Below are positions 3,195 to 44,753 of a stretch of 64,000 nucleotides of DNA, one piece after another. The first letter of the stretch is position 1. The number at the start of each line of letters is the position of its first letter. This DNA comes from Diplonema japonicum. Lineage: Eukaryota; Protista; Euglenozoa: Diplonemea. The position numbers and the translations under genes were made by a program. The notes beneath the pieces were generated by a model. That model was not told the origin of the DNA. It worked only from the letters and a program-made list of their open reading frames with translations, and did no database searches. Location of the stretch: positions 124,001-188,000 of the forward strand of contig OZ025676.1 of assembly GCA_964019335.1 (NCBI GenBank), in the 5' to 3' direction.

Positions 3195-4055
3195 TCAAAT
3201 CGTCCCGTTCATGAAGTCCTCAAGAATAGGCCACCAGAAGGGAGCAGGCCAATTGTGCTCCCCGTCCATGAGAAGCCTGAAGATATCGAGGTTGTTGACA
3301 CCCTTGCTGGCAGAGTAGGAAATGAACTCCCTCGTGTTGCTCGGCGTCCAGTAGTCAGTCTTATAAGGCCCCAATCCGACCCCAGCTTGCGTAGTGTTCC
3401 CCATCCCCTCTCTGATATCCTTCGTGAAAGCGTTAACCGTATCTTTCATTTGGTGCATCGGGCTTCCCCCATACGTGCTCATGTCCATGAGGTACTGCAC
3501 ACCAGTCTTACACAACATGCTGTATTTGTTAAGTGCCTGAGACCACGATGCCACCCAGACAGAGAGTGTGAAGCCTTCAGCGTGAAGAATAGGGATCACC
3601 GTGTCAAGAAATGATGCGTACTCCTGTGCATGGGTGTCTGTGGGGTACTCTGGTTCGTAGTCGAAGTTGAAGCCTTGGAATCCGTATTTCTTTCCAATGG
3701 AGACAAGCTTCTGAGCGAACTCAGTGGGTGCTTTATAGATCTCATGCATTATGGTGGCGTTGTCGATGTCTATTACGCAAGGTGTGATGGGGAGGCCGAA
3801 GGGTTTGAAGATGGACAACCATTGGTGCACTGCTGCCTCGTTGTCCCATCCTGTTAAGGTGCCGTTGTCGGGGACGCCTGGTCCCCACCACAGCAGGAGC
3901 TGTGTGAAAAGTTCCTTGTGTTCGGCCACGGCGTTCGCATTCGCGTGGCTCAGGGTGTCGTTGGAGTCCACGCCAATGTACCAGCTGATGGTCCTGTTGC
4001 TGTTCGCGCAGCTAACCGTGCTAGCTAAGCACGCGAGAACGATGGCCTTCATCAT
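3195..4055 (-). CDS. Secreted GH18-like glycoside hydrolase, copy 3
   Basis: True start is MMKAIVLACLAS at 4055; the upstream part of the tracked ORF is homopolymer noise. Contains YGFQGFNFDYEP and DMSTYGG, and its C-terminus WPAPFWWPILEDFMNG is shared with copy 2. Confidence 0.85.
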   Translation of the reverse strand: MMKAIVLACLASTVSCANSNRTISWYIGVDSNDTLSHANANAVAEHKELFTQLLLWWGPGVPDNGTLTGWDNEAAVHQWLSIFKPFGLPITPCVIDIDNATIMHEIYKAPTEFAQKLVSIGKKYGFQGFNFDYEPEYPTDTHAQEYASFLDTVIPILHAEGFTLSVWVASWSQALNKYSMLCKTGVQYLMDMSTYGGSPMHQMKDTVNAFTKDIREGMGNTTQAGVGLGPYKTDYWTPSNTREFISYSASKGVNNLDIFRLLMDGEHNWPAPFWWPILEDFMNGTI

Positions 4056-20000: not shown

Positions 20001-23000
20001 CCCAAAAGTCAGTAAACCCCACCGAAGCTGTCGGGCCAAATAGGTTGGGGTAGTCTTCTTTCCACATGTAATGGCTGAAGTGCCCATCGGACACCCACCC
20101 CTCCGAGTCATGCGAAGCAGGTACTCCGCTGAGCAGGTCGCAATACACAGGCTCGCTGCTCCCCTCAAACGCATACGCCTGTGTGGGGATCACCCCCAGC
20201 ACTGCGTTGGGGTACTTAGCAAGCGCCACTCTCTGCTCATTATTGATTACCCCCCCAGCCGTCATCGCTTTCAGTGCAGTGTCGATTCGCGAAGCGTCCA
20301 CATCAGCAGGAACAGGACTAGAGCTGCCTATTGGGCAGAAGAATCCAGAGGGGCATGTAATGCACGTTGACGACGAAGTAGCACCCACCACCAAGGAGTA
20401 GGTTCCTGGTGGGCACAGGAAGCACCTGTCCATCCCAATTTTCTCCACCACTGTTGAAGTGCAGGCACCGCTGAAATCGGGAAGACACGGCTGGCACAAG
20501 CCTGTTGTCCCTCGAAGACACGTTGTGCAGCCACCTGTCTGCACTGTGCAGGTGCCCTGGGGCAGAGGATACCCAGAACCTGGGTTATCCGCTGATCTGC
20601 AGATCGGGTCTATTTGTCGTAAGATTTGAAGATACTGCTTAGCAGACCACGTGCCAGCGGGGCATTGCTTGCAGTCACCAGCTGATGTCATCCCTTGCTT
20701 GCTACCGTATGTACCATCAGGGCACTGTCCTGTGCCTGCTCCAATACAGGCCTGTACAACCGCGGAATCGAAACAGGCTCGCGGGTCCCTGCCACCAGAT
20801 ACCATTTCAGTTTTCCCGGTATTCTCAGAGTACGACCCTTGAGCGCATGGTTCGCAGGACGAGATGCCCAGTGCATTATTTGGATAGGCCTGGACGGTGC
20901 CAGCAGGGCAGTCGACGCACGTTGTGGGCTCATGCACGGCATTGACAAATAAGCACCGTGAGTTCCAAACGCACAGACCTTGAGTCTCTGCTGACGAACA
21001 TGTGGTCGCATCGGTGTATGTAGCGCACGTCAGGGCATACTTGCCTGCAACACAGCCTGAACACATTCCTGCCGTGCACCTTCTTCCAATACTGCCGCCA
21101 CTCGGATTAGTGTCCACAGCTGAGGTCGCTACTGCGGTACAAGACCCCCCACCGGTCGCTCCTGAAGAAGCACTACCAGCGGGGCACAGCTTACACGTCA
21201 CGAGCCCTTCATGCAAGGGCTTGTAGTCAGCAGCATCCCACTCCGACGCAAGGGCTGTAGTGAACCCCCACCCAGTAGGGCACACCTCGCAGTCGTCTTG
21301 GCTGGAAGCTTTGTCTTTTGTGCTATATGTCCCGGCCATGCATGGCGTGCACCCGCCAGCAAACTCTGTATTAGTGGTGTCGCCTGCACCACCAGGACTC
21401 CAAGACCCTAATGGGCATGCTGTGCAAACTCGCGTCAGTTGTACAAGTTCGAAAGGCTCCCAGAAACCTTCCAATGTGGAATACCCTGTTGGGGTGGGGT
21501 TCATTGTCACTTTTAAAGTGCAGCCTTTCGCGCCGCGTGAAATCTTCTCAGGTGTGTATTCCCAGTGCGAAGCGGGGAGGATGCCGTAGATGTCCATCGT
21601 TGCCAGTCCCTTCACAACAGGTATCGTGGCTGCAGCATTCGTGATGTCTAATTTCGTCGACGCATCTTTCGCCCAGTAGAAGACAGGGTGTGTGTATAAC
21701 CCTCCTTCGCAGTTAATGACCACCGCCGTCATAGTCCCTGTGAGGTCGACGTCGCGGTTGCCGTAGCTGTCGCGCCCCTCAACAGTGATGGTGTGCTTGT
21801 TGCCGGAACCCATCCAGCGCATGGCATCCGTCGTTACAACCAACTCGACAGCAAGCACGCTTGTCGTCAAGGAGCACGCTGTGTAAATGTCAACATACGG
21901 CCACGGCACCACTGCAGGGTAGCTGTCTACTTCATGTTCAAACGTAACGAAGCTTCCGAACCCCTTTCCTGTGAGGACGTAGGTCAGGTTGCGCTCGATA
22001 TTAGTCTTGAGCTCTCCCACTTGAAAAGACAAGGTGAACGTGTAGTTCAAATCCAGCAGCGGCATGAACTTGAAGGTAGCTTGCCCGTTGACGAGGAGTG
22101 CAAGTGCGGAGTCGAACCTCGCTGCGGGAAGCATCGCTACTTCGTCTGGTGTCCCGGTGGTTGTCATGTTCACGTACACATCCTCAGCCCACGTCATGGT
22201 GGTGCCGTCAGAGGTTTTCAGGGTGACAACAGGCGTGTACTCCGTGCGCACACCTACTTTGCATGTGCTGCAAGTACCTAACACACAGCTGGCAACATCC
22301 CAAGACAGTTCCAGGTGGTGCGGATTCCTTATCCTGACGACAGGGGTCTGCAGCGGGGCAATAATCCTCTCGCCGCTTGACAGACTCGCAGGATCAGTGC
22401 TGCTGGGCACATGGTAAAAGAATAAACGGCAGCCATCCGAGTTTTCCCCGACCAGTCTCAGTGACACCGAACCTCTGCCGAGTACGAGGCGCATTACACC
22501 TCCGAGGCCCGTACCGTTCACTTCTTCAAGGTACACGGACGTTGCCACACACCCGGTGATGTTCGCACCGATGAGGTAGTCTGCGGTGTAGTCAAGGTTC
22601 CCGTCGGCATCCTCTGCACGCACACCCACAACAAACGTTTTGTTTGCCATCGTATACTCGGGCCACGGGTCCACTGTGGGGTCCACAAGGTGGTCGGCGA
22701 TGCCCAGTCGCGTGGCGACAGCACTTCTCGCCTCGATCATGACAGTGTCATTGTGCTCAACGTAGATGTTGGCGTACTCCTGTGAGGCCTCCACCCTCAG
22801 CAGTGCGTTGGAAGGGCTTGTCAGTCTGGCATAGAAGGTCTTCTGCCCTTCAGTGACCACATCATTCAGCACGTCCACGATGGGCTCCAACGTGGAGTTC
22901 CCTATGTAGGTGCCGTTGACGGGCATGGGTATGGTGTGTGTCACCCGGACCACAATGTGTGTGAGAGAGTCGGCCTTCACTACCAAACCGTCGGCATCAT

Positions 23001-25809
23001 GGACCTCCGCGTGCAGCTTAATGGGCTCACCGGAGTATGTGAGAATAGCATGGGATACATGGATGGCCTTAGGTTGCTGCACGTAAAAGGTGTTCGTGTC
23101 AATGAAAGGGTTAGTTCCCCCGGTGGCGGTGATGCGGAGGTGACACTGCAGCATAGTGCCGTCCCTCGTGCCGGTACCGACTATGCCATCATCGAAGACT
23201 GGACCTGACACCGCCACGCTGAAGGAGTACTTGCCATTGGAAAGGGGACCTTGCGCTATGTGCGCCGACGATGAGGCTGTGCCGCCATTGATCTTAGATG
23301 TCAGACCTGTGACACGGCTGCTCTGCACCACACCCTCCACAACGTGGTAGCAGTAAGGTGCGTCGACCATCAGGTAGTACTCCGCTGTTGTGTCGACGTT
23401 ACCTAGCACATCGCCGTAGGCAACTGCCACTGTGAGAGACTGTGTAGCGATGTTGTAAGCAGGTGGCTGCTGCGTCACCAACAAGTCCACGCCCACCACA
23501 CGCACCGTCAGCCTTGCTGCGAGAAGTGCCTCAGATCTGAACACTAACGTTGTCATCGGTGTGGCAGCGTCCAGCCGCACAGCCTGGTGCCACACCTGGT
23601 ATGCGTCCGTGGTCACTCTGCACTCGTTGCTTGACGAAGTACCTGCATAGTCAGTTGCAGCGCCCCCTGCAACACCTTCTGGCGTACTCGAACAGGCTCC
23701 TGGGTGGTTCGCATAGCAGTTATACTTCAAGTCACCTTGACCGCCCTGCTTCTCGACTGTAACGACCGTCGTGCTGCGCATCATGTAGTTGTTAGTCGCG
23801 CTCTGCAAGCGCAGCATGCCAGTGGGCGGGCTGGCGCCCTGGGTGCCAGTCTCGTAGGCGTGTATCCTGAAGTACACCACCTGCCCAGACCGCACTGTGA
23901 AGGTGGATGAGGGGCTCGGGCCGCATGAAGAACATATATTGGATTCGCAAGTTGCACACCGCTCGCCCAAACACCCTCCAGGACAGTCATTCTGACAGTT
24001 CGTAGTATCCCTGCCCCACTTTTCGATAACGAGGGCATATGGCCACAGCCTGCGAACGAAAGAACTGGACTGCGTTCCTGGCGGGCAAGTTGTACATTCT
24101 GTTGAACCTCCTTGGCTGTACGTGCCGTAAGGGCATACTTCGCAATTCCACAAAGAATTAGACCCTTTCATGGCCCCCATGGTGCCAGCAGGGCACAGTT
24201 CGCATGACCCCACGCCTGTGTTGTTGCTGTAGGTCCCATTGGGACACAGCTCACAAGAATCAAGACTTGCACCACCCCCTGCAGGCAGCTGCGTACCAGC
24301 TGGACAGGGAAGGCACCCAGAGACATCGGGGCTCCCACTGCCTTCCGTGTAATGCCCAGGACTACACTCTTTGCACGTTTTTTTATCCTCGTACACATAT
24401 CTCCCTGCAGAACATAGCACACAGTCATACGGCACCGAAGCATGGCCCGCCGGACAAGGGAAACACTGCCAATCCCCGTCGGGACTGAATCTGCCAGGCG
24501 GGCAGAGAGGCGGCACGAAGAACGAAGCAAATAACGGCGAACTGAAGAAGTTTCCATGAGAGCCTCCCACAGTACCTCCAAGGAGGAACGACTTGCCACT
24601 TGAGAAGACAGCTGCAGCACCATGCAGCTTCGACGGGGGGTGCGAGGTGAAGGGTGGGATGGTGATTCTGTTCAGCAGCACGTCGTACTCAATGAAGTCG
24701 CTATAGACACCTGAGGACCAGCCCCCTAGGCAGAGCATGCGGTGTGTCACTGCATAGCAGGCGTGCGAGGATCGAGTAGGAATGGGGAAAGCACCTACCA
24801 GCTGGTTGGTTGCAGCTTTGCGATAGCCGCCCGCAGCAGGTAAAACTAACTCCCATGTCATTGTTGTGAGGCTAAGTTTCCAGAAGGCGTTTGTCGGGCG
24901 TATCGAGGCACCATCGACAACGAGGCCTCCGTGCAGCAACATGATGTTTGCTTGCTGGTTCCATGCCTCGTATTGCCCGACTGTGGAGTTGGGAGATGTG
25001 AGGTTGGAGGGCAGCAGCACTGCGGAGTGAAAGGCGGACGCAGTAGGGCGCGTGCCCGACGCCTCTACGACCGACCACGTTAGGTTGTTCAGGTCAAGCA
25101 CCCACAGCTCGTCCCTCAGGCGACCTCCAGGACCGTAGCCACCGTAGATGTACGCGTTTCCATCATAGAAAACGGCCGAATGACCAGCAAGGGCAGGAGC
25201 ACCCCCTGAAGACGTCATTAGCTGAGTCCACGTGCCGTTCATGTACTGCCATAGGTCATCGAGAGGGTTCCCGTGCGTGCCGTAGCCTCCATGTACGAGC
25301 ATGCGGCAGTTCGTGCACTGGGAAGGGTCGGTGTAGGCTGTAGGTAGCGTGTTGTGCAGAGGTGCTCCCCACGCCACGTGGGACTGCCGCGGCTCCGGCA
25401 TGACGTCATCGAAGGTGTCATTGAAAGGCAGCCACCACACCGCGTGCCGCACGTGGTAGCAGTACACAGTGTTGCTCAGATGTGAAGACGTTTGGAGCCC
25501 TCCAGAAGCGCTCCGTCCCCCAAAAGCCACCAGCACCTTCTCACCATCTTGGTATTCTTCTATCTCAACTAAGGTATGCCTTGTAAGGCGCGGCGGCTGC
25601 TCCATAACATTCCGACACGGTACGTACTCCGGGACCCGCCCCTCGCATGACTCGTTCCAGCCGACGAATGCGCTGGTTCCAGGCCACCCCTCCCAGTCGA
25701 ACCGCACTTCCACCCCGCTGACATCTAACAAACTGGTTGGCACAGTCGACACACAAGACACATGTTCCGCAATGCCCACCACCAGCAGCAGCAGCGACAC
25801 CGCCTTCAT
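17038..25809 (-). CDS. Giant secreted multidomain protein (Kelch propeller, Cys-rich ephrin-receptor-like/GCC2-GCC3 repeats, Ig/cadherin-like repeats, C-terminal vWA-like domain)
   Basis: Intronless ~2920-aa ORF from MKAVSLLLLVVGIA (25809). Kelch GG motifs (LAGHSAVFYDGNAYIYGGYG...DELWVLD), many CxxCPxGTY repeats, Ca-binding Ig/cadherin-like motifs (PVAVPD...LNVLDNDLDADGD), and vWA-like EVMVVLDGTGG...MGLAQY...KKVVVLIT. No TM anchor. Confidence 0.88.
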   Translation of the reverse strand: MKAVSLLLLVVGIAEHVSCVSTVPTSLLDVSGVEVRFDWEGWPGTSAFVGWNESCEGRVPEYVPCRNVMEQPPRLTRHTLVEIEEYQDGEKVLVAFGGRSASGGLQTSSHLSNTVYCYHVRHAVWWLPFNDTFDDVMPEPRQSHVAWGAPLHNTLPTAYTDPSQCTNCRMLVHGGYGTHGNPLDDLWQYMNGTWTQLMTSSGGAPALAGHSAVFYDGNAYIYGGYGPGGRLRDELWVLDLNNLTWSVVEASGTRPTASAFHSAVLLPSNLTSPNSTVGQYEAWNQQANIMLLHGGLVVDGASIRPTNAFWKLSLTTMTWELVLPAAGGYRKAATNQLVGAFPIPTRSSHACYAVTHRMLCLGGWSSGVYSDFIEYDVLLNRITIPPFTSHPPSKLHGAAAVFSSGKSFLLGGTVGGSHGNFFSSPLFASFFVPPLCPPGRFSPDGDWQCFPCPAGHASVPYDCVLCSAGRYVYEDKKTCKECSPGHYTEGSGSPDVSGCLPCPAGTQLPAGGGASLDSCELCPNGTYSNNTGVGSCELCPAGTMGAMKGSNSLWNCEVCPYGTYSQGGSTECTTCPPGTQSSSFVRRLWPYALVIEKWGRDTTNCQNDCPGGCLGERCATCESNICSSCGPSPSSTFTVRSGQVVYFRIHAYETGTQGASPPTGMLRLQSATNNYMMRSTTVVTVEKQGGQGDLKYNCYANHPGACSSTPEGVAGGAATDYAGTSSSNECRVTTDAYQVWHQAVRLDAATPMTTLVFRSEALLAARLTVRVVGVDLLVTQQPPAYNIATQSLTVAVAYGDVLGNVDTTAEYYLMVDAPYCYHVVEGVVQSSRVTGLTSKINGGTASSSAHIAQGPLSNGKYSFSVAVSGPVFDDGIVGTGTRDGTMLQCHLRITATGGTNPFIDTNTFYVQQPKAIHVSHAILTYSGEPIKLHAEVHDADGLVVKADSLTHIVVRVTHTIPMPVNGTYIGNSTLEPIVDVLNDVVTEGQKTFYARLTSPSNALLRVEASQEYANIYVEHNDTVMIEARSAVATRLGIADHLVDPTVDPWPEYTMANKTFVVGVRAEDADGNLDYTADYLIGANITGCVATSVYLEEVNGTGLGGVMRLVLGRGSVSLRLVGENSDGCRLFFYHVPSSTDPASLSSGERIIAPLQTPVVRIRNPHHLELSWDVASCVLGTCSTCKVGVRTEYTPVVTLKTSDGTTMTWAEDVYVNMTTTGTPDEVAMLPAARFDSALALLVNGQATFKFMPLLDLNYTFTLSFQVGELKTNIERNLTYVLTGKGFGSFVTFEHEVDSYPAVVPWPYVDIYTACSLTTSVLAVELVVTTDAMRWMGSGNKHTITVEGRDSYGNRDVDLTGTMTAVVINCEGGLYTHPVFYWAKDASTKLDITNAAATIPVVKGLATMDIYGILPASHWEYTPEKISRGAKGCTLKVTMNPTPTGYSTLEGFWEPFELVQLTRVCTACPLGSWSPGGAGDTTNTEFAGGCTPCMAGTYSTKDKASSQDDCEVCPTGWGFTTALASEWDAADYKPLHEGLVTCKLCPAGSASSGATGGGSCTAVATSAVDTNPSGGSIGRRCTAGMCSGCVAGKYALTCATYTDATTCSSAETQGLCVWNSRCLFVNAVHEPTTCVDCPAGTVQAYPNNALGISSCEPCAQGSYSENTGKTEMVSGGRDPRACFDSAVVQACIGAGTGQCPDGTYGSKQGMTSAGDCKQCPAGTWSAKQYLQILRQIDPICRSADNPGSGYPLPQGTCTVQTGGCTTCLRGTTGLCQPCLPDFSGACTSTVVEKIGMDRCFLCPPGTYSLVVGATSSSTCITCPSGFFCPIGSSSPVPADVDASRIDTALKAMTAGGVINNEQRVALAKYPNAVLGVIPTQAYAFEGSSEPVYCDLLSGVPASHDSEGWVSDGHFSHYMWKEDYPNLFGPTASVGFTDFWGVTTGQVPGVRVRTDVDHTNPTQYYSDLCTASGGFVSTANYEANSGAYYCCASECAVGSGGPGCGTTAACSSALHSKCCYDGIKASQRVCGVISQAPCFIPGPRGALSGITTQSGSLEVNATYDRFVRTIPVGIENNLPIYVRLWGQNHMVITDYELTGSGVLNVTYGARWHLYRTAEEAANGSSTHTVATTLPVYGSPGAGVWVMADEVIQPPWGGPLHSIGIELFVEGGYEGYVLFDDVGVKIDPAFACNCSLGFFFNRTRVGLEGYTTPCQRCPPGYACYAGVLKMCPSGGYTQGGAYKCLDCPQGWLCNYDGRGTSTPCPAKTYEHEDESISRCLTCPLGYSCLDGKRIACNTGSYGDGSDHCILCSPGYYSNVSTAVIECDRCPPGHESNHMRTHCTECVMNSYSWNGTRCASCPLHQFTATTGSASCSDCLKVAAFPPRWQEVTRNKIFITLQVLPLKCIPGLEWRVLRYRHIGVALGHVVWANPPQVSTLSASYYLLDNAMGSDQMEFVVSAGVGGVEQTVLVTVEITNLLPVASPDKVTVRHPVGGASVVELTTLLENDHDPNNDELFIASYTWVDTSSTNGRHSITSVQIDHTRKKLIVTLPDGFKGPMYQLKYNVVDGPVGCVAPACHVSPYVVVNITAKDVPPVAVPDHFSVRPSETKLLNVLDNDLDADGDVLRLTTATKAAAFNNIETVPRIFELCAVCSTSCLSDIADLAPDLSMCLCDMDAATLECRPLVRNGTKWFFMPRFYIRYTAPPGFCGNDTFDYSIVANEDASGTTSVSVSVTQCICGGVTGGLEVMVVLDGTGGGTGWADLIGFAVGLTHRFDFSQGLVSMGLAQYAGYGGTAGVTLHRAMGTTSIETELLLTEQMGNSGLGSVTDDCPDPPCTEAAPILNALPGYFSASAKKVVVLITRHPFADPTLSTLFGTLTGHTLNVLTIDPSPPQYPNVAFDFHRHYASAALLAADQVLPAQLTDDICS

Positions 25810-27566: not shown

Positions 27567-28769
27567 TCAGTAAACATCCTTGTGGAATCTGTGCGATTTC
27601 TCAAGATCCTTCAGGTGCGTGGCGGCTTGGTCTTGGGTCATTCCACCATACTTGCAAAACACTCCGATTAAGGCCTTCTCCACGCCTGGAGCCATTGCCT
27701 TGGCGTCACCGCAGATGAAGATTTGGGATTTCTTGTTGGCGATCCAGTCCCATATTTCCTTGCCCTGCTCTGTGATTCGGTCTTGCACGTACGTCTTTTT
27801 GGAATTTGGGTCTCTTGAGAAAGCAGTTGACATTTTGAGAAGACCTTTTTCCTTCAAAGCTTCCCACTCAGATTTGTAGAGATAGTCCGCTGGCTTCTGA
27901 TCCCCGAAAAAAACCCAGTTCTCAGCACCTGCTTTCATTCTCTTCGGGTCTTGCATGAATGCGCGGAATGGTGCGATTCCTGTACCAGGACCGATCATAA
28001 TCGCAGGGATGTTGGTCGTTGGTGGGCGGAATTTGGGAGCTTTTTGAATGAAGACAGGGGTCATTGCCGCGCCCAACGGAAGGTGGTGGAGGAAGTGCGT
28101 TGCCGTACCGTTTCTTTCAATACCGTGCGTGGTGTAGTCAACCTTTGCCACTGTGAGGTCAACAGTCTCCCCGGCCATCGCTTGACTGGAGGAGATACTG
28201 TAAAGCCTTGGCTGTAAAGGCTTCAACGCTTTGATGATATCCGCAGAAGGCACATCCTTCAGGTACTTCCCTGCAAAGTCGTACAGTTCCATGCTCTGAA
28301 GATGCTCGAGGTATTTTTTGCTATCCTTCTTCATCTCCTTCAACTCGCTGACCTTCGATAGCTTCGCCAAGGCTGGAGGGATATTGCGGATGTCCAAGTA
28401 CTGTGCCAGCAGCATTGCTGCTGGCATGTCAGCTCCTTTCTTTATTCTCTTATGGCCTACAGGGCTTGCCTTGTCGAGGTTTAATGCTTTTAGGGTCTTC
28501 TCTACCAAATCGGTGCCCTGAAGAGGCATCACGCCCAGAGAGTCTCCTGCCTCGTATTTCGTTCCTTTATTCAGCAAAAAAGTGTAGTGTGCAGTCGTCT
28601 TGTTGCTCCCCGCCTCGTTCAGTTTCCTCCTCGTCACCAACGGGGCAAGGAGCGGCTTTGTCCTGCTGGCCGCCGCGCCATCGTTCACGCTAACGTATTC
28701 ACTCGGCGTGTGGCTGTACGCGATGCCCTTCAGGAAGGCCTCCGATGCCGAGGCGGGGACTGCTGCCAT
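27567..28769 (-). CDS. FAD/NADPH oxidoreductase, CysJ (sulfite reductase flavoprotein)/CPR-like FNR module without flavodoxin domain
   Basis: YEAGDSLGV, LQPRLYSISSS, MIGPGTGIAPFRAF, FFGDQ...DYLY, TAFSRD...YVQDRI, ICGDAKAMA and terminal KDVY. 400 aa, with no FMN-binding domain. Confidence 0.88.
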   Translation of the reverse strand: MAAVPASASEAFLKGIAYSHTPSEYVSVNDGAAASRTKPLLAPLVTRRKLNEAGSNKTTAHYTFLLNKGTKYEAGDSLGVMPLQGTDLVEKTLKALNLDKASPVGHKRIKKGADMPAAMLLAQYLDIRNIPPALAKLSKVSELKEMKKDSKKYLEHLQSMELYDFAGKYLKDVPSADIIKALKPLQPRLYSISSSQAMAGETVDLTVAKVDYTTHGIERNGTATHFLHHLPLGAAMTPVFIQKAPKFRPPTTNIPAIMIGPGTGIAPFRAFMQDPKRMKAGAENWVFFGDQKPADYLYKSEWEALKEKGLLKMSTAFSRDPNSKKTYVQDRITEQGKEIWDWIANKKSQIFICGDAKAMAPGVEKALIGVFCKYGGMTQDQAATHLKDLEKSHRFHKDVY

Positions 28770-28948: not shown

Positions 28949-31900
28949 CTATTGATGTGGCATCGCAAGATGCTTCGCGGCCCATGGTCTTTTGCTCAGC
29001 GTGGAAGGGGTGTGAAGGAGCTGCTCGGCGGTCTTGCGGGACAGCCGTTGGGTACTGGCCGTGGGGTTCGAGTGGGTGGTGTGCGATTGCCACTTGAAGA
29101 ACTCCTTTGCCTCTAAAGAGGAGCGCATGAAGGAGGAATCGGACATGCCGCTCAGGTTGGCGGGGGACGCGGTCTCGGGGATCACCTTTTCGGACTGTCG
29201 TTTGAGAATGGAACGCACAGCGGCCACCCTCTTTGCGTCGTCTGACTGCAGAATGGCAGCAAGCTTCTCATCGGTTTTGGGATATTTCTTGTTCTGATTT
29301 TCGATTCGCTTGGCTGCTGCTTCGTCATCCAACCGCTCCAGCTCTGTCTCTATCATCGAAAGCTCATTCTTGGCACGCTGTTCGCGCTCGCATTCGAACT
29401 GCAGCTTTTTGTCGCTCTCCGACCTTTGCTGCTGCAGCTGCACGATCTGCGCTTCCAGCATGCTCCTGATCTGCTGTTGTTCTTCTAGCTGCTCTGAGTA
29501 CTTTGCCGCCTCTTCCTTCCTGATGCCTGCTATGACATCGTCTCCCAGCGAGCTGCACACTTCCATCTGTGCATAGCGCTCCCTTTCCACTTTCACGTCC
29601 TTCAGCTGCGATCCCAACCTCTCGATTTCCTCACGCATGGACTCCTTCCGTATTCTCTCTGCAGCCAGCATCCTGTCCTTTTCAGCCTTCCACTCCAACA
29701 TTGCTACGTTCATCTCTTCCATTTCCTTTTCTTTTTCCCCTTCGCTGTCCAACTCTGTCTCCTCTGCCCTCTCGTGTTGAACTGCGGCTCTGCTTTCCAT
29801 GCTGTTCTTGAGGAGCAGTTCCAAGACCCTCACCTGCTTGCGCTGCTCATCCAGCATCTGATTCCCCATCTCCAGCTCTTTCAGCATTGTACATTTCTCA
29901 TCAATCCATTCGTCTTCCGCATGGGTATCGGGGACAGGCGGCTGCAGCTGTTGCAGGTGCTGCATCGCGATAGAGACCTGCTGCTGATTGGAGGCAGTCA
30001 CTATCCATGACCCGTCTTCATTGCGGGAGACAGCCGGAAATGGGAGCTCGGGCTCCTCGAGTGGCTCTGTTTGAATCTCAGCATGGCTGGGCGTTTGAGT
30101 GTGAGCCACTGCAATGGGGATCTCCTCTCTGTTCCTCGGCGATGACCTTGGAGATGTGGCTGACAACTGTGTGCCTCGCTTCTCTGGTGGCGTGACTGGA
30201 TCCTGTGGGCCTTGTGGCTGAGTTCCCTGCCTCGGTGAGACCAAGGCCGGTAAAGGTGGCGACGCAGGTCCAGCATGCCTTGTCGCTCCGTGTCCAGGAG
30301 GCATGATAGGTGTTCTAGTTCGTGCAGGACTGCAAGCCTCATCGGTCGCCCTCATCATCCTCTCGGGACTCATGGGTCTTAGCGGGGGCTGGTCCTTTAC
30401 CGACTCTGCAGAAGCCTTCTTGTACTGCTCGACTGTCGCTTCAATGGTAGCCCTTCTGCGCCTCCTGTTCGTTCTTGCCTTGTTATACATGCTCGTAGGG
30501 ATAGGGGGTGCCTCCTGCTGGGCAACTGTTGTACAGAATGGGTTGTCAACCTCCACACTTCTCAACAACTCCACCGTCTTTCGGGCAGCAGGAGGTACAC
30601 CTGAGGGGGTTTCGGGAACTGCCAAACTCAACACAGCAGCCAGTTGCTCCTCGAGTTGCTCCCTCGGTGGGGACGCGGGCCTTGGCGTTTTCCAAATAAA
30701 AGGTACCGTGTCCTCGTGCGGCATTCGCGTTAAAGGCAGAGGGCTCCCTCCGACTACCCATTCTGCAAGCCTCCCTGATTTCTTAGGTGTCGCCAGGTCA
30801 GGGTTCGCTATCACGCCGGGTATCCATTCTTCTGCAAGCCCAACATCAAGGGGCATCTCAGAGGTGTACATCGCATTTTCAAGTTCCTTTTCATGGGACA
30901 GGGGCTCAAGAAACGTTTCGGCTGCAGCTTCAGAATGCTGCCCTGGAAACTCTGAACTTACCATAGGAGCCGGAGGTGGCGGATGAACAGGCGCTTCTTC
31001 AGGCCCAAGTGTCAGTGGCACCCCAGGTGCTGCGGGTGCTGGAGGATGTCCAGGAGTCTCTTGTGCTTTTGGTGCAATGGGTGCTCCAGGTGGAACTCCA
31101 GAAACCACAGGTGCCTCTGGCGCACCAAGTGCAGGCGGTGTTGGGGAAGCCACAGGGTGTGCAGGAAGTCCCGCAGAAGGCGCAGCAGGTTCTTTCGGTG
31201 CCGCAGGGACAGGGGGTGCCGTTGTGGTAGAAGGAACAGCAGATGCAATCAGTCCCCCAGAGGGAGCTGGGTGTGCGCCTGGAGGCGCAGGAGCAGGTAA
31301 TTTCGGTGCCCCAGGGGGAGCGGGGGGAGCTGCAGGAGGAACTACTGCTTTCGGAGAAGCAGGGGGAGCTGCAGGTGCTTTCGGTGCAAAGGGGGCAGGG
31401 GGCGCCACAGAGGGAGCAGGAGCTGCAGAAGGCGCAAGTTCATCCGGTGCCCCTGTGAGAGCAAGAGGTGCTGCAGGAGGTGCTTTCGGTGCCGCAGGAG
31501 GAGCTGCAGGAGGTACCACTTTCGGAGCAGGGGGAGCTGCAGGAGGAACTACTGCTTTCGGAGCAGCAGGGGGAGCTGCAGGTGCTTTCGGTGCAAAGGG
31601 GGCAGGGGGTGCCGCTGGGGGCGCCACAGTGAGAGCAGGAGCTGCAGAAGGCGCAAGTTCATCCGGTGCCCCTGTGAGAGCAGGATGTGCTGCAGGAGGT
31701 GCTTTCGGTGCCGCAGGGGGAGCTACAGGAGGTGTCGCGTTTGGTGCTCCAGGGGGAGCTGCAGGAGGTGCCACCTTCGGAGCAGGGGGAGGGGATGCTT
31801 TCGGTGACGCAGGAGGCGGTATCGCAGGTGCCTTTGCTGCAGGAGTCACAGAGGGAGGCACTATAGAAGGAGCAGGGGGTGCCGCAGAAGGTGCCTTTGG

Positions 31901-32794
31901 TGCCCCAGGGGGAGGGGGCGCTGCAGGAAGTGTCACTATCGGTGCAGGGAGAGGGGGCGCCGCAGGAGGCATCACGGAAGGAGCAGAGGGCGGAGGTGCC
32001 CCAGGACCAGGAGGAGCTGCAGGTGCTTTCGGTGCCCCAGAAGGAACAGGGGGTGCTACAGAAGGAGGTGCTCCTGCCACACGTGCTATTGGCACTGCAG
32101 GGGGAGCAGGGGGTGTTGCTCTCGACACTCCAAGAACCTCAGGTGGAGCAGGAGGCGTCGGCAGTGCCCCGAGTGCAGTAGGTGGAGCAGGAGGTGCTGG
32201 CAGAGCACCGAGTGCAGTAGTTGATGGAGGAGAAGCCATTGGTGCTTTTGGTGCTGCAGGAGGGGGAGCTCCCTCAGCGGCTTCCGTCACAGGAGGAGGT
32301 GCTTGGGGCGGTGCAAGCACAGGAGGTGCGGGTGGTACCTTCGATGCGGGGGCTGGCGGCGGGGGTGGTGCTGCTGGCATCGTCGGAGGAGGTACGGCGA
32401 GCTTAGGTGGTGGACTAACAGGGGGCATGACAGCAGGCGGCGGCGGTGGCGGCATCTTTGTCGGGGGCGAGAGTGCAGGGTGCTGAGGCGCACTGACCTC
32501 CGGTGGCTGGAAGTAAAGAAATGCACCTTGGGTGATGGCCGCCTCGCTGCTCAGGTCTTCGTTCGCATCGAGAACTCTGCCGAGTTGCAAGTCACCACCC
32601 GCCCAATTGTTCGGGACCTTTCCAAGAACAGTCCAAACTTTGTAGCTGCTCACGTCATGTTCCAACCTCGCAACCAACTTGGGCATCATAGTTTGCAGGG
32701 TTGGTTTTACCGCAGGGATGGAACATATCAACTTATTTGTGGGAGCCCAATAGGCATCAGGCGCCTTCTCACCGATGAGACGCACGATCACCAT
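28949..32794 (-). CDS. Pro/Ala-rich protein with small globular (ubiquitin-like?) N-terminus and C-terminal coiled coil
   Basis: 1281-aa intronless ORF: ~95-aa globular start, ~520 aa of PAAPP/APKAP repeats, then an E/K/Q-rich heptad region. Confidence 0.8.
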   Translation of the reverse strand: MVIVRLIGEKAPDAYWAPTNKLICSIPAVKPTLQTMMPKLVARLEHDVSSYKVWTVLGKVPNNWAGGDLQLGRVLDANEDLSSEAAITQGAFLYFQPPEVSAPQHPALSPPTKMPPPPPPAVMPPVSPPPKLAVPPPTMPAAPPPPPAPASKVPPAPPVLAPPQAPPPVTEAAEGAPPPAAPKAPMASPPSTTALGALPAPPAPPTALGALPTPPAPPEVLGVSRATPPAPPAVPIARVAGAPPSVAPPVPSGAPKAPAAPPGPGAPPPSAPSVMPPAAPPLPAPIVTLPAAPPPPGAPKAPSAAPPAPSIVPPSVTPAAKAPAIPPPASPKASPPPAPKVAPPAAPPGAPNATPPVAPPAAPKAPPAAHPALTGAPDELAPSAAPALTVAPPAAPPAPFAPKAPAAPPAAPKAVVPPAAPPAPKVVPPAAPPAAPKAPPAAPLALTGAPDELAPSAAPAPSVAPPAPFAPKAPAAPPASPKAVVPPAAPPAPPGAPKLPAPAPPGAHPAPSGGLIASAVPSTTTAPPVPAAPKEPAAPSAGLPAHPVASPTPPALGAPEAPVVSGVPPGAPIAPKAQETPGHPPAPAAPGVPLTLGPEEAPVHPPPPAPMVSSEFPGQHSEAAAETFLEPLSHEKELENAMYTSEMPLDVGLAEEWIPGVIANPDLATPKKSGRLAEWVVGGSPLPLTRMPHEDTVPFIWKTPRPASPPREQLEEQLAAVLSLAVPETPSGVPPAARKTVELLRSVEVDNPFCTTVAQQEAPPIPTSMYNKARTNRRRRRATIEATVEQYKKASAESVKDQPPLRPMSPERMMRATDEACSPARTRTPIMPPGHGATRHAGPASPPLPALVSPRQGTQPQGPQDPVTPPEKRGTQLSATSPRSSPRNREEIPIAVAHTQTPSHAEIQTEPLEEPELPFPAVSRNEDGSWIVTASNQQQVSIAMQHLQQLQPPVPDTHAEDEWIDEKCTMLKELEMGNQMLDEQRKQVRVLELLLKNSMESRAAVQHERAEETELDSEGEKEKEMEEMNVAMLEWKAEKDRMLAAERIRKESMREEIERLGSQLKDVKVERERYAQMEVCSSLGDDVIAGIRKEEAAKYSEQLEEQQQIRSMLEAQIVQLQQQRSESDKKLQFECEREQRAKNELSMIETELERLDDEAAAKRIENQNKKYPKTDEKLAAILQSDDAKRVAAVRSILKRQSEKVIPETASPANLSGMSDSSFMRSSLEAKEFFKWQSHTTHSNPTASTQRLSRKTAEQLLHTPSTLSKRPWAAKHLAMPHQ
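31323..31733 (-). repeat. Intragenic tandem duplication (~200 bp unit) in the Pro-rich gene
   Basis: KAPPAAxxALTGAPDELAPSAAPA...PPAPFAPKAPAAPPAxPKAVVPPAAPPAP occurs twice with high nucleotide identity (~31323-31514 and ~31530-31733). Confidence 0.85.
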
Positions 32795-32927
32795 TGCAAC
32801 ATAGACGCCTGGTGGTGGTGTAATGGCAGTGGTAGGAAGAAAGAAATAGTAAAAAGGAGGAAGCCAGGCCGCTGTAGATGGGGAAAAAAAAAGGAAAAAA
32901 AGAAGAGTGAAAAGAAAAAAAGTATCG

Positions 32928-34946
32928 TCACATCGAGCTTCTTCGCACGCGTGGCTTGGCGATGCAGTACAAGATGATCAGACGTTTAATGCGCAGGAGG
33001 AGCTCGACGACTTCTTCACGGTGGGACGGCGTGAGGAAGTCGAAGGTGCCCATAATGGTGGATTTTGTGAAGTGCATGGAACGCTTGGGAGGGAAGTGTC
33101 TGATTGTGACTTTCTCTTCCGGTTTCTTTCCCCTGCGAATGGCTTCGAGATATGAAGAGGAGAACTCCGCGGCGTAGAATCTCATGTGGTACCCTCTGTA
33201 GGTCACGAGGAAAACGGTTTTCGGGTCGTCGCTCTTCGTGAACTTATGGCAATTCTGCGCAATGGCAAGAAGCTCGCCGGCGATTCGACCGTAATTCTCA
33301 GAGGCAGCGGTTGTACCTGCTTCGTTCGCGACGAAGTACACTGATTGCTTCTTGTCCGGTTTCAACGCAAAAACACCCATGTCTGAATCGCTTCGGATCT
33401 CCTTCTCATGCCTCCCTTCGCCGAACGTCACGGTCAGCCCCGCTTTGGACCGAAACCCAAGATGGACGCCTGACTTTTCATCCCACTTGGCAAAGCCCAA
33501 GACGTGGTGTAGCTCCGCTGCAAAATCCAATGTGTACGTTTCTATATTATTCTCGCATTTTGAGGATTCAGCACGCATAATATGGTAGAGTTTGTAGGCT
33601 AGATTGCGTTGGTTTTTCGGAAGCATATTGCTCTTTTCGATCAAATCGCGGTTGGTGAGCAGCTCGTGAGACAGCTTTCTGCTGATGAATTTATCGGGTG
33701 CCTCGTAAGGCTCGAGGGCGGCCATGGCTTCGGCTGACTCGGGGCTCACGGTGGGGTCGATGAGGTCTTCGATGGTCTGCACTGCGTGGTCGTCGAACGA
33801 TATCCCGAAGAACTTCAACTGGTTGGGCCCCCAGTTCGAGGTGTTGTTGATCTGCTCGTTGTTGTGGAAGTCCTTGGTGGCGTTCATGCGAAGCTTCATC
33901 TCGTCCCATTTCACGGTGAAGGTGGACCCGATCACAGCGATGGGCATCGCACTGAAAATTACACCGAATATCATGGCTGCACTGTTCACGATCTTCCCAA
34001 ACGCCGTTCTCGGTGTATAGTCACCGTATCCCACGGTGGTCATTGTCACAGTGCACCACCACAATGATTCTGGGATCGACACGAAAACAGATTCAGTGCG
34101 GTGGCCGTGCACGTCGTCTACGTAGAACCGTCCGTCTGAAGGGTCATAGGTTCCTTGTTCGCACAGGAAGATCAACGAGCTGAAAAAAATAATACCCAGG
34201 AACAGAAAGAAAAACGGCGGGAGCAGCGCTGGGATCGACATCTTAACGACGTCCAACAAGATCTCTGCACCGTCGTATTTCTTCCCCATCTTCAGAACAC
34301 GGAACACCCTCGCGAGCCTCACCACTCTGATGAACCTGAGGTTCACAGATGATTTCAACGCAAGCTCAACATAATATGGAACAATCGCCAGCAGATCGAC
34401 GATGCTGAAGGGTTCGATCACGTGCTTCAATGGGTTCGGTGATGTTACAAGAACCACCATGTACTCGCAGGTGAAGAACGCCACAAAAACAGTTTCGATG
34501 TAGAACCACATATCCTCACGATTTGCGTTGCCGTACTCGGGGTCGGCAGAGAGGGAAGGGAGCGTCTCAAGCATAAAGGTGATGGTGGAAGCGATGATTA
34601 GGAAGAAGAACCAAAAAGACACCGCCATTGCTGCTCGTGAGCTCGCCGGGTCTGTGAATAATATGTAGACGCGCTCTCTGAGGCTTCCTTGCACTATTGC
34701 GTGATTTTCCCCTTCATGGTCGTCAATTATCGTCGCGCCCAAGGCGTCGCCGATCTCCCCTTCGGTGTCCTCCACCTTTCCCCATGTCACTGCTTTCTTG
34801 GACCCTTTAGGGGCCCGTCTCACGTCGCCTTCTACGTCGCTTTCATCGTCGCTCTTCTCCATGTTCCCCTCCCAGTCGTACACACCACTGCGATGGCTCA
34901 TCACTTCATGGTGCTTCACAGCGGCGCCACCAAAAACCGCGGTCAT
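32928..34946 (-). CDS. Voltage-gated K+ channel (Kv/Shaker-like 6TM, no T1 domain) with C-terminal PD-(D/E)xK-like domain
   Basis: S1-S6 present, S4 LRFIRVVRLARVFRVLK, pore SIPESLWWCTVTMTTVGYGD, S6 AMPIAVI. A ~290-aa globular C-terminal domain follows. Start MTAVFGG at 34946. Confidence 0.92.
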   Translation of the reverse strand: MTAVFGGAAVKHHEVMSHRSGVYDWEGNMEKSDDESDVEGDVRRAPKGSKKAVTWGKVEDTEGEIGDALGATIIDDHEGENHAIVQGSLRERVYILFTDPASSRAAMAVSFWFFFLIIASTITFMLETLPSLSADPEYGNANREDMWFYIETVFVAFFTCEYMVVLVTSPNPLKHVIEPFSIVDLLAIVPYYVELALKSSVNLRFIRVVRLARVFRVLKMGKKYDGAEILLDVVKMSIPALLPPFFFLFLGIIFFSSLIFLCEQGTYDPSDGRFYVDDVHGHRTESVFVSIPESLWWCTVTMTTVGYGDYTPRTAFGKIVNSAAMIFGVIFSAMPIAVIGSTFTVKWDEMKLRMNATKDFHNNEQINNTSNWGPNQLKFFGISFDDHAVQTIEDLIDPTVSPESAEAMAALEPYEAPDKFISRKLSHELLTNRDLIEKSNMLPKNQRNLAYKLYHIMRAESSKCENNIETYTLDFAAELHHVLGFAKWDEKSGVHLGFRSKAGLTVTFGEGRHEKEIRSDSDMGVFALKPDKKQSVYFVANEAGTTAASENYGRIAGELLAIAQNCHKFTKSDDPKTVFLVTYRGYHMRFYAAEFSSSYLEAIRRGKKPEEKVTIRHFPPKRSMHFTKSTIMGTFDFLTPSHREEVVELLLRIKRLIILYCIAKPRVRRSSM

Positions 34947-35038
34947 TTTTCTTTTCTTTTTCCCGTCCCGTGTATTTCTTCCCCCTTTTTTTTTGTTCAA
35001 AAATCTGGAGAGAGAAAAGAAAAAAAAAAAAAAAATGA

Positions 35039-41552: not shown

Positions 41553-43268
41553 TCATAGCTGTGTCAGTACTTTCCCGTCTTCACCGTGGAGCCTTGCTAA
41601 ATCCTCTGCCAAGGCCTCCTTGGATCGGGCGGAGGCCTCCATGGCTGTCTTGGAGGGGTCGGTGAAGTAAATGCCCAAAGACTGCAGGGTTTGAGAGGTG
41701 AGAGCGAAGTTCGCAGAGTGCGTCTCGGCGACCTCGAGAAGCGTTCTCTGCTTGTTCCTCAATGACTGTGTCTCGGTGGCGATGGGCACCCGTCCTTCTG
41801 AAACGGTCGTCTGCCTCTCAGCACGTTCGTTCCACACCACCTTGGCACCATAACGATCGGCGAGACCGTGAACGGTGGTGATGAACTCTTTGAAGGCCTC
41901 AAGGCTTTGCTTTGCCTCCGCAGTCTTCGTGTTGATCAAAGCTTGCTGCGCGTCAACATTCATAAAATGTTCAGTGGCGTTGTTGAAGAAGCCCTTTAAC
42001 ACCGATTGAGACTTTAACTGGAAATCGTTTTCCGCCTCAACACATCCACAAAGATCATCCCTAAGGAGGTCTATCTTCATCATCCATTCTTCATGTAGGG
42101 ATTTTCGGATGGACTCGTCTGCGGTCGCTTTGGCATGCAGGTCTACTAGTTCAACCCGTTCCTCGTTTAACAATGAGATTTGTTCCATCTTCTTGCACAC
42201 ATCGTCGAAGACTCGTTCTTGATGTGCGGAGTTTTCTCTCAGTAACGCTTGGAAACGGCTGCATTTTGTTTCGAATATTGCATTTGCCCTCTCGTCCTTC
42301 TTCTCGGCCGTGCTGCCGTAGTCATCGAGGGACATGATATCGGCTTGGACCTGTTTTTTTAATAGCTTCCATGAATCGCGTGTTTGATCCAAATCATCAC
42401 GCATTCTGTCCTTCCATTTCAAGCAGTTTGAATTGTGCTCCTCCACTTCACCCGCTGCTAGTGTGACGCACTGCATCCGTTGATGCGTTGTCCTAACCAT
42501 CTCCGTTAGGATCGGGATTAACAAAACGCTTGTTTCTTCGACTCCTTCGTTCTCGCCTGCGATCTCAGCGGCGACTCGCTTTGCTGAAAGAATCTTCGCG
42601 TTGCAGCTCAAATTGCGAATTTCGGTTTCAGTTGCCAGTAGCTCGCTTTTGAGGTAAGCAAGCGCGTCCTCACGGGTTAGTCTCCCGCCTTCCGAAAGGA
42701 GGCATATGACCTCATCGGTGAAGATTGGTTTGAGTTTTTCGTGTAAAATCTCTGATTCACACGACATTCTCGTTGATGATTTTTGTAAAACGGATAATTG
42801 TTCTATAAGGAACTCCTTGTCGAGTGTGGGTCTGTTTCGGGTTTTGTTTATAAATTCTGTTACGTTGGTGTGAATGCCTGCTTGTTGTGAGATGTTCTCG
42901 TAGGTGGCACTAGTGACAGGGGGACCTTTTACTCCTGATGCGAACTCTGCCATGTGTGAAGGGGTTTCCTTGTTTTTCGTGGAGATCTCTTGCTTCATGC
43001 GGAGCGTTCTCTCGAGGTTCTTTCTGTGTTGCTTCTTCAGGTCTTGCATGGAGTTTCTGAGAATTTCGTACAGCTCCGCGTTCACACCTTTTCTGTCCAC
43101 TTTGTAGTGCAGTACCTCCTTGCCCCCCACCACCGTTTCTTCATACGCCCCATAAACCGCATCCCCTTCAGGTTTTTTGATCCCAGGCTCTTCCCACGAC
43201 TTATCAGGGTATGGTTCCATTAGTGGAATGGCCTCCCTGCTGAATTTTCTGTGGAGCATTGCCGTCAT
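41553..43268 (-). CDS. Paraflagellar rod (PFR)-family coiled-coil protein, divergent
   Basis: ~570 aa. LKKQVQADIMSL...LRENSAHQERVFDDVCKKMEQISLLNEERVELV...ESIRK resembles the recalled PFR1/2 coiled-coil pattern (ENxxxQxxxW...LxxERxxxV...ExxRK). Confidence 0.6.
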   Translation of the reverse strand: MTAMLHRKFSREAIPLMEPYPDKSWEEPGIKKPEGDAVYGAYEETVVGGKEVLHYKVDRKGVNAELYEILRNSMQDLKKQHRKNLERTLRMKQEISTKNKETPSHMAEFASGVKGPPVTSATYENISQQAGIHTNVTEFINKTRNRPTLDKEFLIEQLSVLQKSSTRMSCESEILHEKLKPIFTDEVICLLSEGGRLTREDALAYLKSELLATETEIRNLSCNAKILSAKRVAAEIAGENEGVEETSVLLIPILTEMVRTTHQRMQCVTLAAGEVEEHNSNCLKWKDRMRDDLDQTRDSWKLLKKQVQADIMSLDDYGSTAEKKDERANAIFETKCSRFQALLRENSAHQERVFDDVCKKMEQISLLNEERVELVDLHAKATADESIRKSLHEEWMMKIDLLRDDLCGCVEAENDFQLKSQSVLKGFFNNATEHFMNVDAQQALINTKTAEAKQSLEAFKEFITTVHGLADRYGAKVVWNERAERQTTVSEGRVPIATETQSLRNKQRTLLEVAETHSANFALTSQTLQSLGIYFTDPSKTAMEASARSKEALAEDLARLHGEDGKVLTQL

Positions 43269-43349
43269 TTCCCCCCCCCCCCCTCCCCCCTTTTTGTTTT
43301 TTTTTTCCATCTAAAAAAAAAAACAAAAAAAAAAAACAAAAAAAAAAAA

Positions 43350-44753
43350 TCATCTCGAAACCTTTCCAGGAGACGAGCCTGTGAAGTTCACGAAATCGAA
43401 GCGCGACTTCACATTCGGCATTCTACGCTGGATCTCGTTCGCGTCGGGTTGCTGCCCGGCTGTCTCAAACACCTTTTCGAAACACCTGAGATACACCTCC
43501 GACTCGATCACACCATTGTTGGAAGCCGTGTCACGCAAGCTACGCGCAGCAGATACATTCCCAGTGTGTGAGTACACAGTCATCGCCATTGTGTACAACC
43601 GACGACAAGAAAGGTACTCATTTGAAATGGCTTGGTGGATCAACCCCTTCGTGTACTCATCAATACCAAGCATTCTAGGCGAAGTGGGTGCAAGCTTCGA
43701 TGCAAGCACAGCGTTTCCCTCCAACAAAATCCCCAATGTGATGTTATTGGGGGTGAGTTTGAGTTTCTCAAGAAGCTTAACATGTCTTTTGAGGCTCTCG
43801 ACTAAACCCAGCTTGCTGAACACAGACAGAAATGCGTGGATCAGTTCCAGCCCGGTATTAATGGGCCGTGGGGGCTTGTCACGGTGTCCTAGCCATTCCA
43901 TCCATGTCCCAGGTTTCAGTTTTGCGAATAGTTTTTCCGCTTCTTCGGGGTTGCCTTCTCGTGCCGCTGCTTTGAAAACGCTTTGAAATAAAGAAGCTCG
44001 TATTGAGAACCCCGATGTGTAGCATTCATTGAGGTAAATCTTCGCGGTGGCGACATCGGGGCAGGATGAGATCATCAAGCTCCATGCGTGTGGGCCTTTT
44101 TCGAAGCCTTGTTGTTCCATTGCCGCCCAGAGCTGTTTTGTTTTGGAGAAGTTGCCTCTTGTGGAGTAGTATCGAAGAACGGCGATCCATACCGAGTCGG
44201 TTTTGGGAATGTTATCCCGCTTGAGGTCTTCCAAAACCTGTTGAAGAGCTGTGTCGGAGGCCGAGAAGTCCCGCGCGCAAGCATTGATGAGGAATTTGTA
44301 GGTGTCTGGTGTTCTGTCGACTTTTTGGGTTGTCATGGTTTCAAGAATTGACAGGGACTGTCGAAGGTTTCCCCCCCATGAGAGGTATTTGAGGACCTCG
44401 TTGTAGGTCTGCGTTCCGAGGGTGCATCGCTTTGCCGCCATTGTCCCGAGGAGGCCGAAGAGTTGTCCGGTGGCAAGGCGTCCCAGGCTCATACTTTCTC
44501 TCCGTTTTGCCATTGTTTGAACGCGTGAGGCGCGTTCTGTTATGTACAAGGCGGTTCTTGTGTCGTTCCACATCAGGAGGTCCTCTATGCGGTTTGAAGG
44601 GGGGTTGAAGAAGTCTGCCTCTCGCCCCGTGGCTGCCTTGTTTGCTGGTTTTTTTTTTTCGCGTTGTGTTTCGCTTTGAGCTGGATTTCTTTTCCACTCT
44701 CCGACCCAGTTCATTCCTCTTGTCGTGCGTTGTGCGCCTCCTTTACGTATCAT
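43350..44753 (-). CDS. Pentatricopeptide repeat (PPR) protein, probably mitochondrial
   Basis: ~35-aa repeats starting TYNEVL, TYKFLINACAR, VWIAVLRYYSTRGN, AWSLMI and LFQSVFKAAAREGNPEEAEKLF. Basic N-terminus from ATG 44753. Confidence 0.85.
   Translation of the reverse strand: MIRKGGAQRTTRGMNWVGEWKRNPAQSETQREKKKPANKAATGREADFFNPPSNRIEDLLMWNDTRTALYITERASRVQTMAKRRESMSLGRLATGQLFGLLGTMAAKRCTLGTQTYNEVLKYLSWGGNLRQSLSILETMTTQKVDRTPDTYKFLINACARDFSASDTALQQVLEDLKRDNIPKTDSVWIAVLRYYSTRGNFSKTKQLWAAMEQQGFEKGPHAWSLMISSCPDVATAKIYLNECYTSGFSIRASLFQSVFKAAAREGNPEEAEKLFAKLKPGTWMEWLGHRDKPPRPINTGLELIHAFLSVFSKLGLVESLKRHVKLLEKLKLTPNNITLGILLEGNAVLASKLAPTSPRMLGIDEYTKGLIHQAISNEYLSCRRLYTMAMTVYSHTGNVSAARSLRDTASNNGVIESEVYLRCFEKVFETAGQQPDANEIQRRMPNVKSRFDFVNFTGSSPGKVSR

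Follow-up and report, generated by a model that had tools for sequence, protein, structure and literature searches.

The regulation of K+ channels is defined by their cytosolic domains, and the known set of these is short: T1, cyclic-nucleotide-binding, RCK and ankyrin domains. In TRPM2 (NUDT9-H) and in BK and MthK (RCK), an enzyme-derived cytosolic domain follows the pore helix and binds a ligand, and the occupancy of RCK or NUDT9-H domains shifts the opening of such channels. Some lineages have retained the enzymatic activity of TRPM2, and others have lost it. Among the voltage-gated channels, the true Shaker family (Kv1-4) is defined by an N-terminal T1 domain, which is an assembly domain, and choanoflagellates have T1-less Shaker-like channels (PMC11287247). 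Nuclease folds have also been reused: the mitoribosomal proteins mL37 and mL65 are described as repurposed endonucleases (PMC8998825).

The locus analyzed here lies in a 64-kb window (the whole stretch of DNA under study, 64,000 nucleotides) and consists of a single stop-free, intronless ORF of 672 aa on the minus strand (32928-34946), in which a Kv core is followed by a tail of about 300 aa. The window contains only one copy of this fused gene. The diplonemid channel resembles both animal Kv1-4 and the T1-less choanoflagellate channels in having a voltage-sensor domain and a K+-selective pore, with an intact S4 and a GYGD filter. Unlike Kv1-4, it has no T1 domain, and it differs from both groups in carrying an additional 300-aa C-terminal restriction-endonuclease-fold (REase-fold) domain at a fixed distance from S6. 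As in TRPM2 and BK/MthK, an enzyme-derived cytosolic domain is placed past the pore helix, although the folds are unrelated and both the ligand and the gating role are here proposed ones. The main features are as follows.

32928..34946, minus strand: Shaker-like Kv channel plus PD-(D/E)xK-fold domain, intronless, 672 aa (ORF, Pfam)
34683..34946, minus strand: disordered N-terminus, aa 1-88, without a T1 domain (pLDDT<50 for 1-86)
34872-34880, minus strand: conserved [YF]-x-W motif in the N-terminus
34782-34796, minus strand: RVxF-type motif KAVTW, possible PP1 docking site
34272..34682, minus strand: voltage-sensor domain S1-S4 (Pfam, comparison with solved channels and fused copies)
34290-34340, minus strand: S4, LRFIRVVRLARVFRVLK
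33912..34271, minus strand: pore domain S5-P-S6
34020-34040, minus strand: filter TTVGYGD
33936-33947, minus strand: S6 hinge MPIA
33852..33911, minus strand: linker, predicted continuation of the S6 helix (H315-362; 353-366 of low confidence; full-length model)
32931..33851, minus strand: restriction-endonuclease-fold (PD-(D/E)xK) domain, aa 366-672 (AlphaFold, structure matches, stand-alone profile)
33273..33542, minus strand: active-site-equivalent residues (from their position on the predicted secondary structure, not from 3D distances)
33540-42, minus strand: E469
33387-89, minus strand: D520
33381-83, minus strand: D522
33315-23, minus strand: E542-A543-G544, with Gly at the Lys position
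33285-87, minus strand: R554
33273-75, minus strand: E558
34978..35007, minus strand: likely trans-splice acceptor(s), an AG ending at 34978 and an AG ending at 35005 after a pyrimidine tract (contig ends)

No description of a fusion between a Kv channel and a REase fold was found in the open-access main texts searched; nor did these yield any paper on a diplonemid K+ channel, and the words "channel" and "potassium" do not occur in the main text of the D. papillatum genome paper. If a conserved PD-(D/E)xK fold is indeed held at constant spacing from S6, it would add a new entry to the regulatory domains of K+ channels, and would be an independent case of a conflict-system enzyme domesticated for signalling. 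The channel also offers a handle on electrical signalling in diplonemids.

Architecture and transcripts of the fused ORF

The first-pass annotation, which was centered on the region 32928-33850 (the last 307 residues of the ORF), had proposed that a Kv core and a nuclease-like tail are encoded by one continuous intronless frame, and this proposal was borne out. The Pfam scan of the 672-aa ORF placed Ion_trans at residues 109-343 (E 2.3e-36), and all the motifs previously quoted are present within the ORF, both halves of which have a similar GC3 (0.66 vs 0.68). Chance read-through and an assembly chimera were ruled out by two facts: the tail is matched by 14 other proteins, 13 of which carry Ion_trans, and contigs from two studies span the entire ORF. 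In each of the runs X3, X4, X5, and X7, one contig (2122-2166 nt) covers the ORF without any base differences and carries 26 unaligned letters, masked as a repeat, beyond 34978, where an AG occurs. Co-translation of the two halves is therefore strongly implied rather than proven, since contigs are not single molecules.

At the neighbouring gene, contigs from runs X1 and X3 leave the genomic sequence at 32809, where an AG lies shortly before that gene, and continue with 23-24 non-genomic letters; these match the leader fragment quoted in PMC12153298, and X1 and X3 can thus be recognized as RNA runs. Together with a paraflagellar-rod-like protein encoded elsewhere in the window, these leader letters mark the DNA as euglenozoan. 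Position 32809 (minus strand) is accordingly the spliced-leader addition site, in both runs, of a proline/alanine-rich ORF of 1281 aa (28949-32794), which gave no Pfam match.

The channel half shows the features of a Shaker-like 6TM K+ channel, namely an S1-S6 core with the K+ filter TVGYG and an S4 with periodic Arg/Lys residues. Its closest solved relative is Kv2.1 (E 4e-38), followed by Kv1.3, Kv3.1, and Shaker. In the 20 fused proteins described below, the S4 stretch always contains 6-7 basic residues and the filter always reads VGYGD. No T1/BTB domain was detected by Pfam in the 672-aa ORF, where residues 1-86 are modelled as disordered; because it has no T1, the channel is, on the basis of its sequence, Shaker-like and not a true Shaker family member under the definition given in PMC11287247. 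The N-terminus is poorly conserved (identity 0.28 over 13 orthologs). An RVxF-type motif nevertheless occurs in 13 of the 15 short-family N-termini, whereas 2000 shuffles gave 0.87 on average and 5 at most, and by its pattern it is a candidate PP1 docking site.

The distance between the MPIA hinge and the first Trp of the domain is exactly 38 aa, without any indel, in all 15 short-family proteins, and 41-46 aa in the five long-family ones. In the full-length model (pTM 0.49), S6 forms one helix from 315 to 362, the residues 353-366 having a pLDDT <50, and a continuous helix is thus predicted to run from S6 to the domain. A helical link of fixed length is what a gate-pulling domain would need, and the fixed spacing suggests that the domain is mechanically coupled to the gate.

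Fold of the C-terminal tail

The sequence of the tail (residues 366-672) gave no Pfam match at E<=1, nothing in PHROGs, no PADLOC match at E<=0.1, and no match among the PDB sequences with either phmmer or a profile. The AlphaFold2 model obtained with a 28-sequence alignment has a pLDDT of 92.6 and a pTM of 0.92 and contains the two helices and mixed sheet of a restriction-endonuclease-like core, with the elements (in tail numbering) H103-117, E129-135, E158-163, E170-179, H187-205, and E212-219. When this model was submitted to Foldseek, 16 matches were obtained at E<=0.001, the matches listed being mitoribosomal large-subunit chains; chains 5 and s are taken here, from the chain naming, to be mL37 and mL65. 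In a structure search independent of Foldseek, four out of 48,161 chains scored at Z>=8, namely mL65 (Z 13.6, 221 aligned residues, rmsd 4.3), mL37 (Z 12.9), DrdV (Z 9.4, rmsd 3.0), and BpuSI (Z 8.9). Nearly all the next-ranked rows were restriction-like nucleases, such as HsdR, SgrAI, NucC, EcoRI, and Hjc. A second structure comparison agreed with these results, with Z values up to 14.2 and DrdV at 10.0 (rmsd 2.7, 137 aligned residues). The REase or PD-(D/E)xK fold that had been recognized from motifs alone was thus recovered from structure, and no channel-regulatory fold appeared among the matches listed for the tail model. A homodimer prediction for the tail, made without an alignment, had a score of 0.09, a value that speaks neither for nor against dimerization.

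The best structural matches are therefore mL37 and mL65 (about 220-235 residues, Z 12.7-14.2, rmsd 4-5 A), in which, as in the reading proposed here for the tail, a nuclease fold is reused without cutting. Their identity to the tail is only 8-12%, their chains gave no sequence match to it at E<=10 with phmmer or a profile, and similarity of fold is no proof of direct descent. They also differ from the tail, which is fused to a channel and retains most of the acidic active-site residues. The tail has the same helix-strand core order as DrdV, BpuSI, HsdR, NucC, and EcoRI and, as in restriction endonucleases, an Asp precedes the second core strand and a Glu is located on the third; unlike these enzymes, however, the tail is membrane-anchored, has no methylase or helicase partner, and lacks the canonical Lys here and in 11 of the 20 fused copies in all. 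The match with mL37 and mL65 is longer than that with bacterial restriction enzymes (about 220-235 vs 137-150 residues), which raises the idea that the two mitoribosomal proteins might come from the same eukaryotic REase-fold family as the tail.

Distribution and origin of the fusion

The 14 other proteins matching the tail (565-836 aa, 52-75% identity) were found in a search among proteins of 369-1176 aa, and 10 of them bear transcript-assembly names. The only one without Ion_trans, P0013, represents part of a full-length record of 991 aa. Where a source is named, these proteins come from Diplonema ambulator, D. papillatum, Rhynchopus euleeides, R. humris (as a cluster member), Sulcionema specki, Flectonema neradi, Lacrimia lanifica, Artemidia motanka, and Namystynia karyoxenos. 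When 1.84 billion representatives were searched exhaustively with HMMER, 19 matches were obtained, including five longer fused channels (1079-1538 aa) from D. ambulator, N. karyoxenos, one other source, and, in two cases, a source labelled "Hpha", which we take to be Hemistasia phaeocysticola. Together with the query, the 14 proteins of the first search and these five longer channels make up a fused set of 20, 15 belonging to a short family and five to a long one; every named member is from a diplonemid, and no named fused copy from outside the diplonemids was found in the exhaustive search. No relative of the tail was detected in metagenome contigs or in a word-indexed search of proteins of 168-538 aa.

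In D. papillatum, records covering one half only occur beside the 991-aa full-length one, P0013 being tail-only and P0019 (435 aa) channel-only; P0025 is also a tail-only record. Such half-length records tell against co-translation of the two halves, but we read P0013, P0019, and P0025 as probable gene-model fragments. The fragments P0029 and P0025 were left out of the counts and trees, and P0031 was discarded, its short match being judged spurious. The full-length D. papillatum copy, KAJ9470684.1, is annotated simply as "Shaker", so that the REase-fold domain is hidden from routine annotation.

In the tail tree, all 20 fused tails form one clade as against the stand-alone proteins (support 95/98), and the ENA fused copies nest among the named diplonemid copies. 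The same long and short subfamilies, with several pairs in common, are present in the channel tree. On the evidence of these matching channel and tail trees, the fused family is composed of two paralogous subfamilies, and the simplest reading is that one fusion occurred before the diplonemid radiation and was followed by duplication. Large insertions interrupt the REase-fold domain of the long paralogs P0020-P0024, in which repeated Trp-rich modules follow the first strand; P0024 also has a weak PDZ-like match near its C-terminus (aa 1002-1062, E 1.3e-4, below the Pfam cut-off).

The tail is matched weakly, with 27-39% identity (E 4e-7 to 7e-4), by seven uncharacterised stand-alone proteins (P0026-28, P0030, and P0032-34), 186-375 aa in length. 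A profile built from these seven proteins alone finds all 20 fused tails at 57-130 bits, as against <=0.9 bits for the reversed and shuffled decoys, the query's own score being inflated by the fact that the stand-alone proteins were found with it. A profile search with alignment A2 returned at least three known proteins among the 7995 candidates listed, the stand-alone family being under-sampled. In the ESM Atlas, the tail lies at 0.97 to eukaryotic clusters, mostly from Basidiomycota, and the nearest named families, which serve as leads only, are HSDR_N (0.81-0.82) and PDDEXK_12 (0.76). The first-pass annotation had likened the tail to a eukaryotic and viral REase-fold family. Its eukaryotic side is upheld by the Basidiomycota clusters and by the kinship to stand-alone proteins, of which six out of seven keep E-x-K; the viral side is not supported, as no relative was found in viral contigs (queries P0026 and P0002), and the single BFVD match at E<=0.001 had a TM of 0.19. 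The stand-alone proteins sit on long branches in the tail tree, which singles out none of them as the donor.

Conserved site residues and possible roles of the domain

The active site was assigned by placing residues on the predicted strands, following the canonical scheme of PMC3424549. In the query, it comprises E469, D522 at the start of core strand 2, and E542-x-G544 on strand 3; the second core helix carries R554 and E558. In the 20 fused copies, D520 and D522 are each Asp in 19 and Glu in one, so that position 522 is always acidic; position 558 is Glu in 19 and Gln in one, and R554 is conserved in 17, the others having Lys, Ser, or Gln. Position 542 is more variable (E9/Q10/D1), and the first-helix Glu is gone in all five long paralogs. 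The Lys expected two residues past the Glu is absent in the query (G544) and is kept in nine fused copies, the overall composition of this position being K9/L3/Y2/M2/S2/G1/N1; full E-x-K occurs in four copies, among them P0004 of R. euleeides, and Q-x-K in five. Taking Lys to be ancestral, it was lost about 6-7 separate times, as counted by eye on the tail tree. In the stand-alone proteins, by contrast, E-x-K is present in 6/7 and position 554, where the fused copies have Arg, is Gln in 6/7.

The mutated lysine and the pseudo-nuclease status previously proposed consequently hold only in part: the query has E542-A543-G544 and Lys is lost in 11/20 copies, but the change is not family-wide, and R554 could stand in for Lys. 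In PD-(D/E)xK enzymes, a shift of Lys and Glu onto the second core helix has been described (PMC3424549); R554 is located there, and residual catalysis may thus persist. To judge from its sequence, the query is not a canonical PD-(D/E)xK nuclease. Orthologs with and without the catalytic Lys would permit a direct test of whether catalysis matters.

Over 13 orthologs, the mean identity is 0.62 in the tail and 0.63 in the voltage-sensor domain. In a strain comparison based on at least 36 coding differences, those listed for the tail comprise 14 synonymous vs 6 non-synonymous changes on 203 vs 718 sites (ratio about 0.12). These patterns indicate that the tail is slow-evolving and under purifying selection, and that selection maintains the fold and an acidic, Arg-lined pocket rather than the Lys. 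The conserved acidic residues may serve structure alone.

The explanation that we tentatively prefer, although we hold it to be somewhat short of probable, is that this voltage-gated K+ channel uses a mostly non-cutting nuclease fold as a gating module, which would bind a metal or a phosphate-bearing ligand and act via the extended S6. A stand-alone eukaryotic REase-fold gene would have joined a T1-less Shaker-like channel once, before the Diplonemidae/Hemistasiidae split, and would then have been duplicated. The catalytic Lys would have been dispensable, while the acidic, Arg-lined pocket (D520, D522, E/Q542, R554, E558) would have been retained in order to bind either a divalent cation or some phosphate-bearing ligand, for instance a nucleotide or a short nucleic acid. 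The four occupied domains under the pore might pull on S6 and shift the voltage-dependent opening, and the N-terminal RVxF motif might add phosphatase control. The domain could alternatively have a purely structural role, as an assembly or scaffold module in place of T1, driving subfamily-specific tetramer assembly or trafficking, or docking partner proteins, without any small ligand. This seems rather unlikely, even though the channel has no T1, the assembly domain of the true Shakers, T1-less Shaker-like channels exist in choanoflagellates (PMC11287247), the closest folds, mL37 and mL65, form a structural pseudo-dimer (PMC8998825), and the long paralogs carry inserted modules, including the PDZ-like match in P0024. 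The near-invariant D520, D522, R554, and E558 at active-site positions exceed the needs of a scaffold, T1-less Kv channels function without such a domain (PMC11287247), and the fixed S6 spacing speaks for mechanical coupling.

Some or all of the fused copies may still be enzymes, since Lys is present in 9/20 and E-x-K in 4/20, and since R554 could replace Lys. The corresponding reading, an active metal-dependent phosphodiesterase or nuclease with a rearranged site (PD-E/QxX plus the Arg and Glu of the second core helix) in which catalysis or the binding of substrate would act on the gate, is favored by the five additional Q-x-K copies, the invariably acidic position 522, the Arg replacing in 17/20 copies the Gln of 6/7 stand-alone proteins, and the known migration of Lys and Glu to the second core helix (PMC3424549). 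We nevertheless regard it as distinctly improbable: the replacement of Lys by six different residues on about 6-7 occasions looks like relaxed selection, the first-helix Glu is missing in 5/5 long paralogs, and a plasma-membrane nuclease would have no obvious substrate. It is unlikely, though less so, that the gate responds jointly to voltage and to a nucleotide or nucleic-acid ligand held in a domesticated nuclease pocket, catalytic in some species and binding-only in others; if this were true, the channel family would offer a natural series in which a channel-enzyme passes from enzyme to sensor. The immune-sensor framing given initially is not supported, because the domain is slow-evolving and under purifying selection. 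An immune device that, like bacterial sensor-pore systems, would detect foreign nucleic acid and open the pore on infection is also at odds with the vertical evolution of the domain, the single copy in the window among housekeeping genes, the lack of any PADLOC match for the tail at E<=0.1, the ordinary K+-selective filter, and the intact voltage sensor, and it appears very improbable in spite of a fold typical of conflict systems (DrdV, BpuSI, and NucC being among the matches), the conserved basic residues K452, H455, R458, R499, R554, and R643, which could bind nucleic acid, and the common occurrence of REase domains in Crinkler-type effectors (PMC5289972). Unlike Crinkler/RHS-type REase effectors, the fused protein has no N-terminal header and no NTPase or kinase before the REase domain, its partner being a Kv core; judging by this architecture, it is not a Crinkler-type effector.

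Among the other ORFs of the window are several on the minus strand, including two similar tandem ORFs of 284 and 286 aa (1662-2516 and 3195-4055) with hydrophobic N-termini and a GFNFDYE motif, which we take to recall glycoside hydrolase family 18, although neither gave a Pfam match at E<=0.001. An intronless ORF of 2923 aa (17038-25809) with kelch repeats, Cys-rich ephrin-receptor-like repeats, and bacterial Ig/cadherin-like domains is likely to encode a large surface protein. A 400-aa protein (27567-28769) with stand-alone FAD_binding_1 and NAD_binding_1 domains resembles a sulfite reductase or P450 reductase without the flavodoxin domain. On the other side of the channel gene, a paraflagellar-rod-like protein (41553-43310, E 5e-10) and a PPR protein (43350-44753) provide a housekeeping context.
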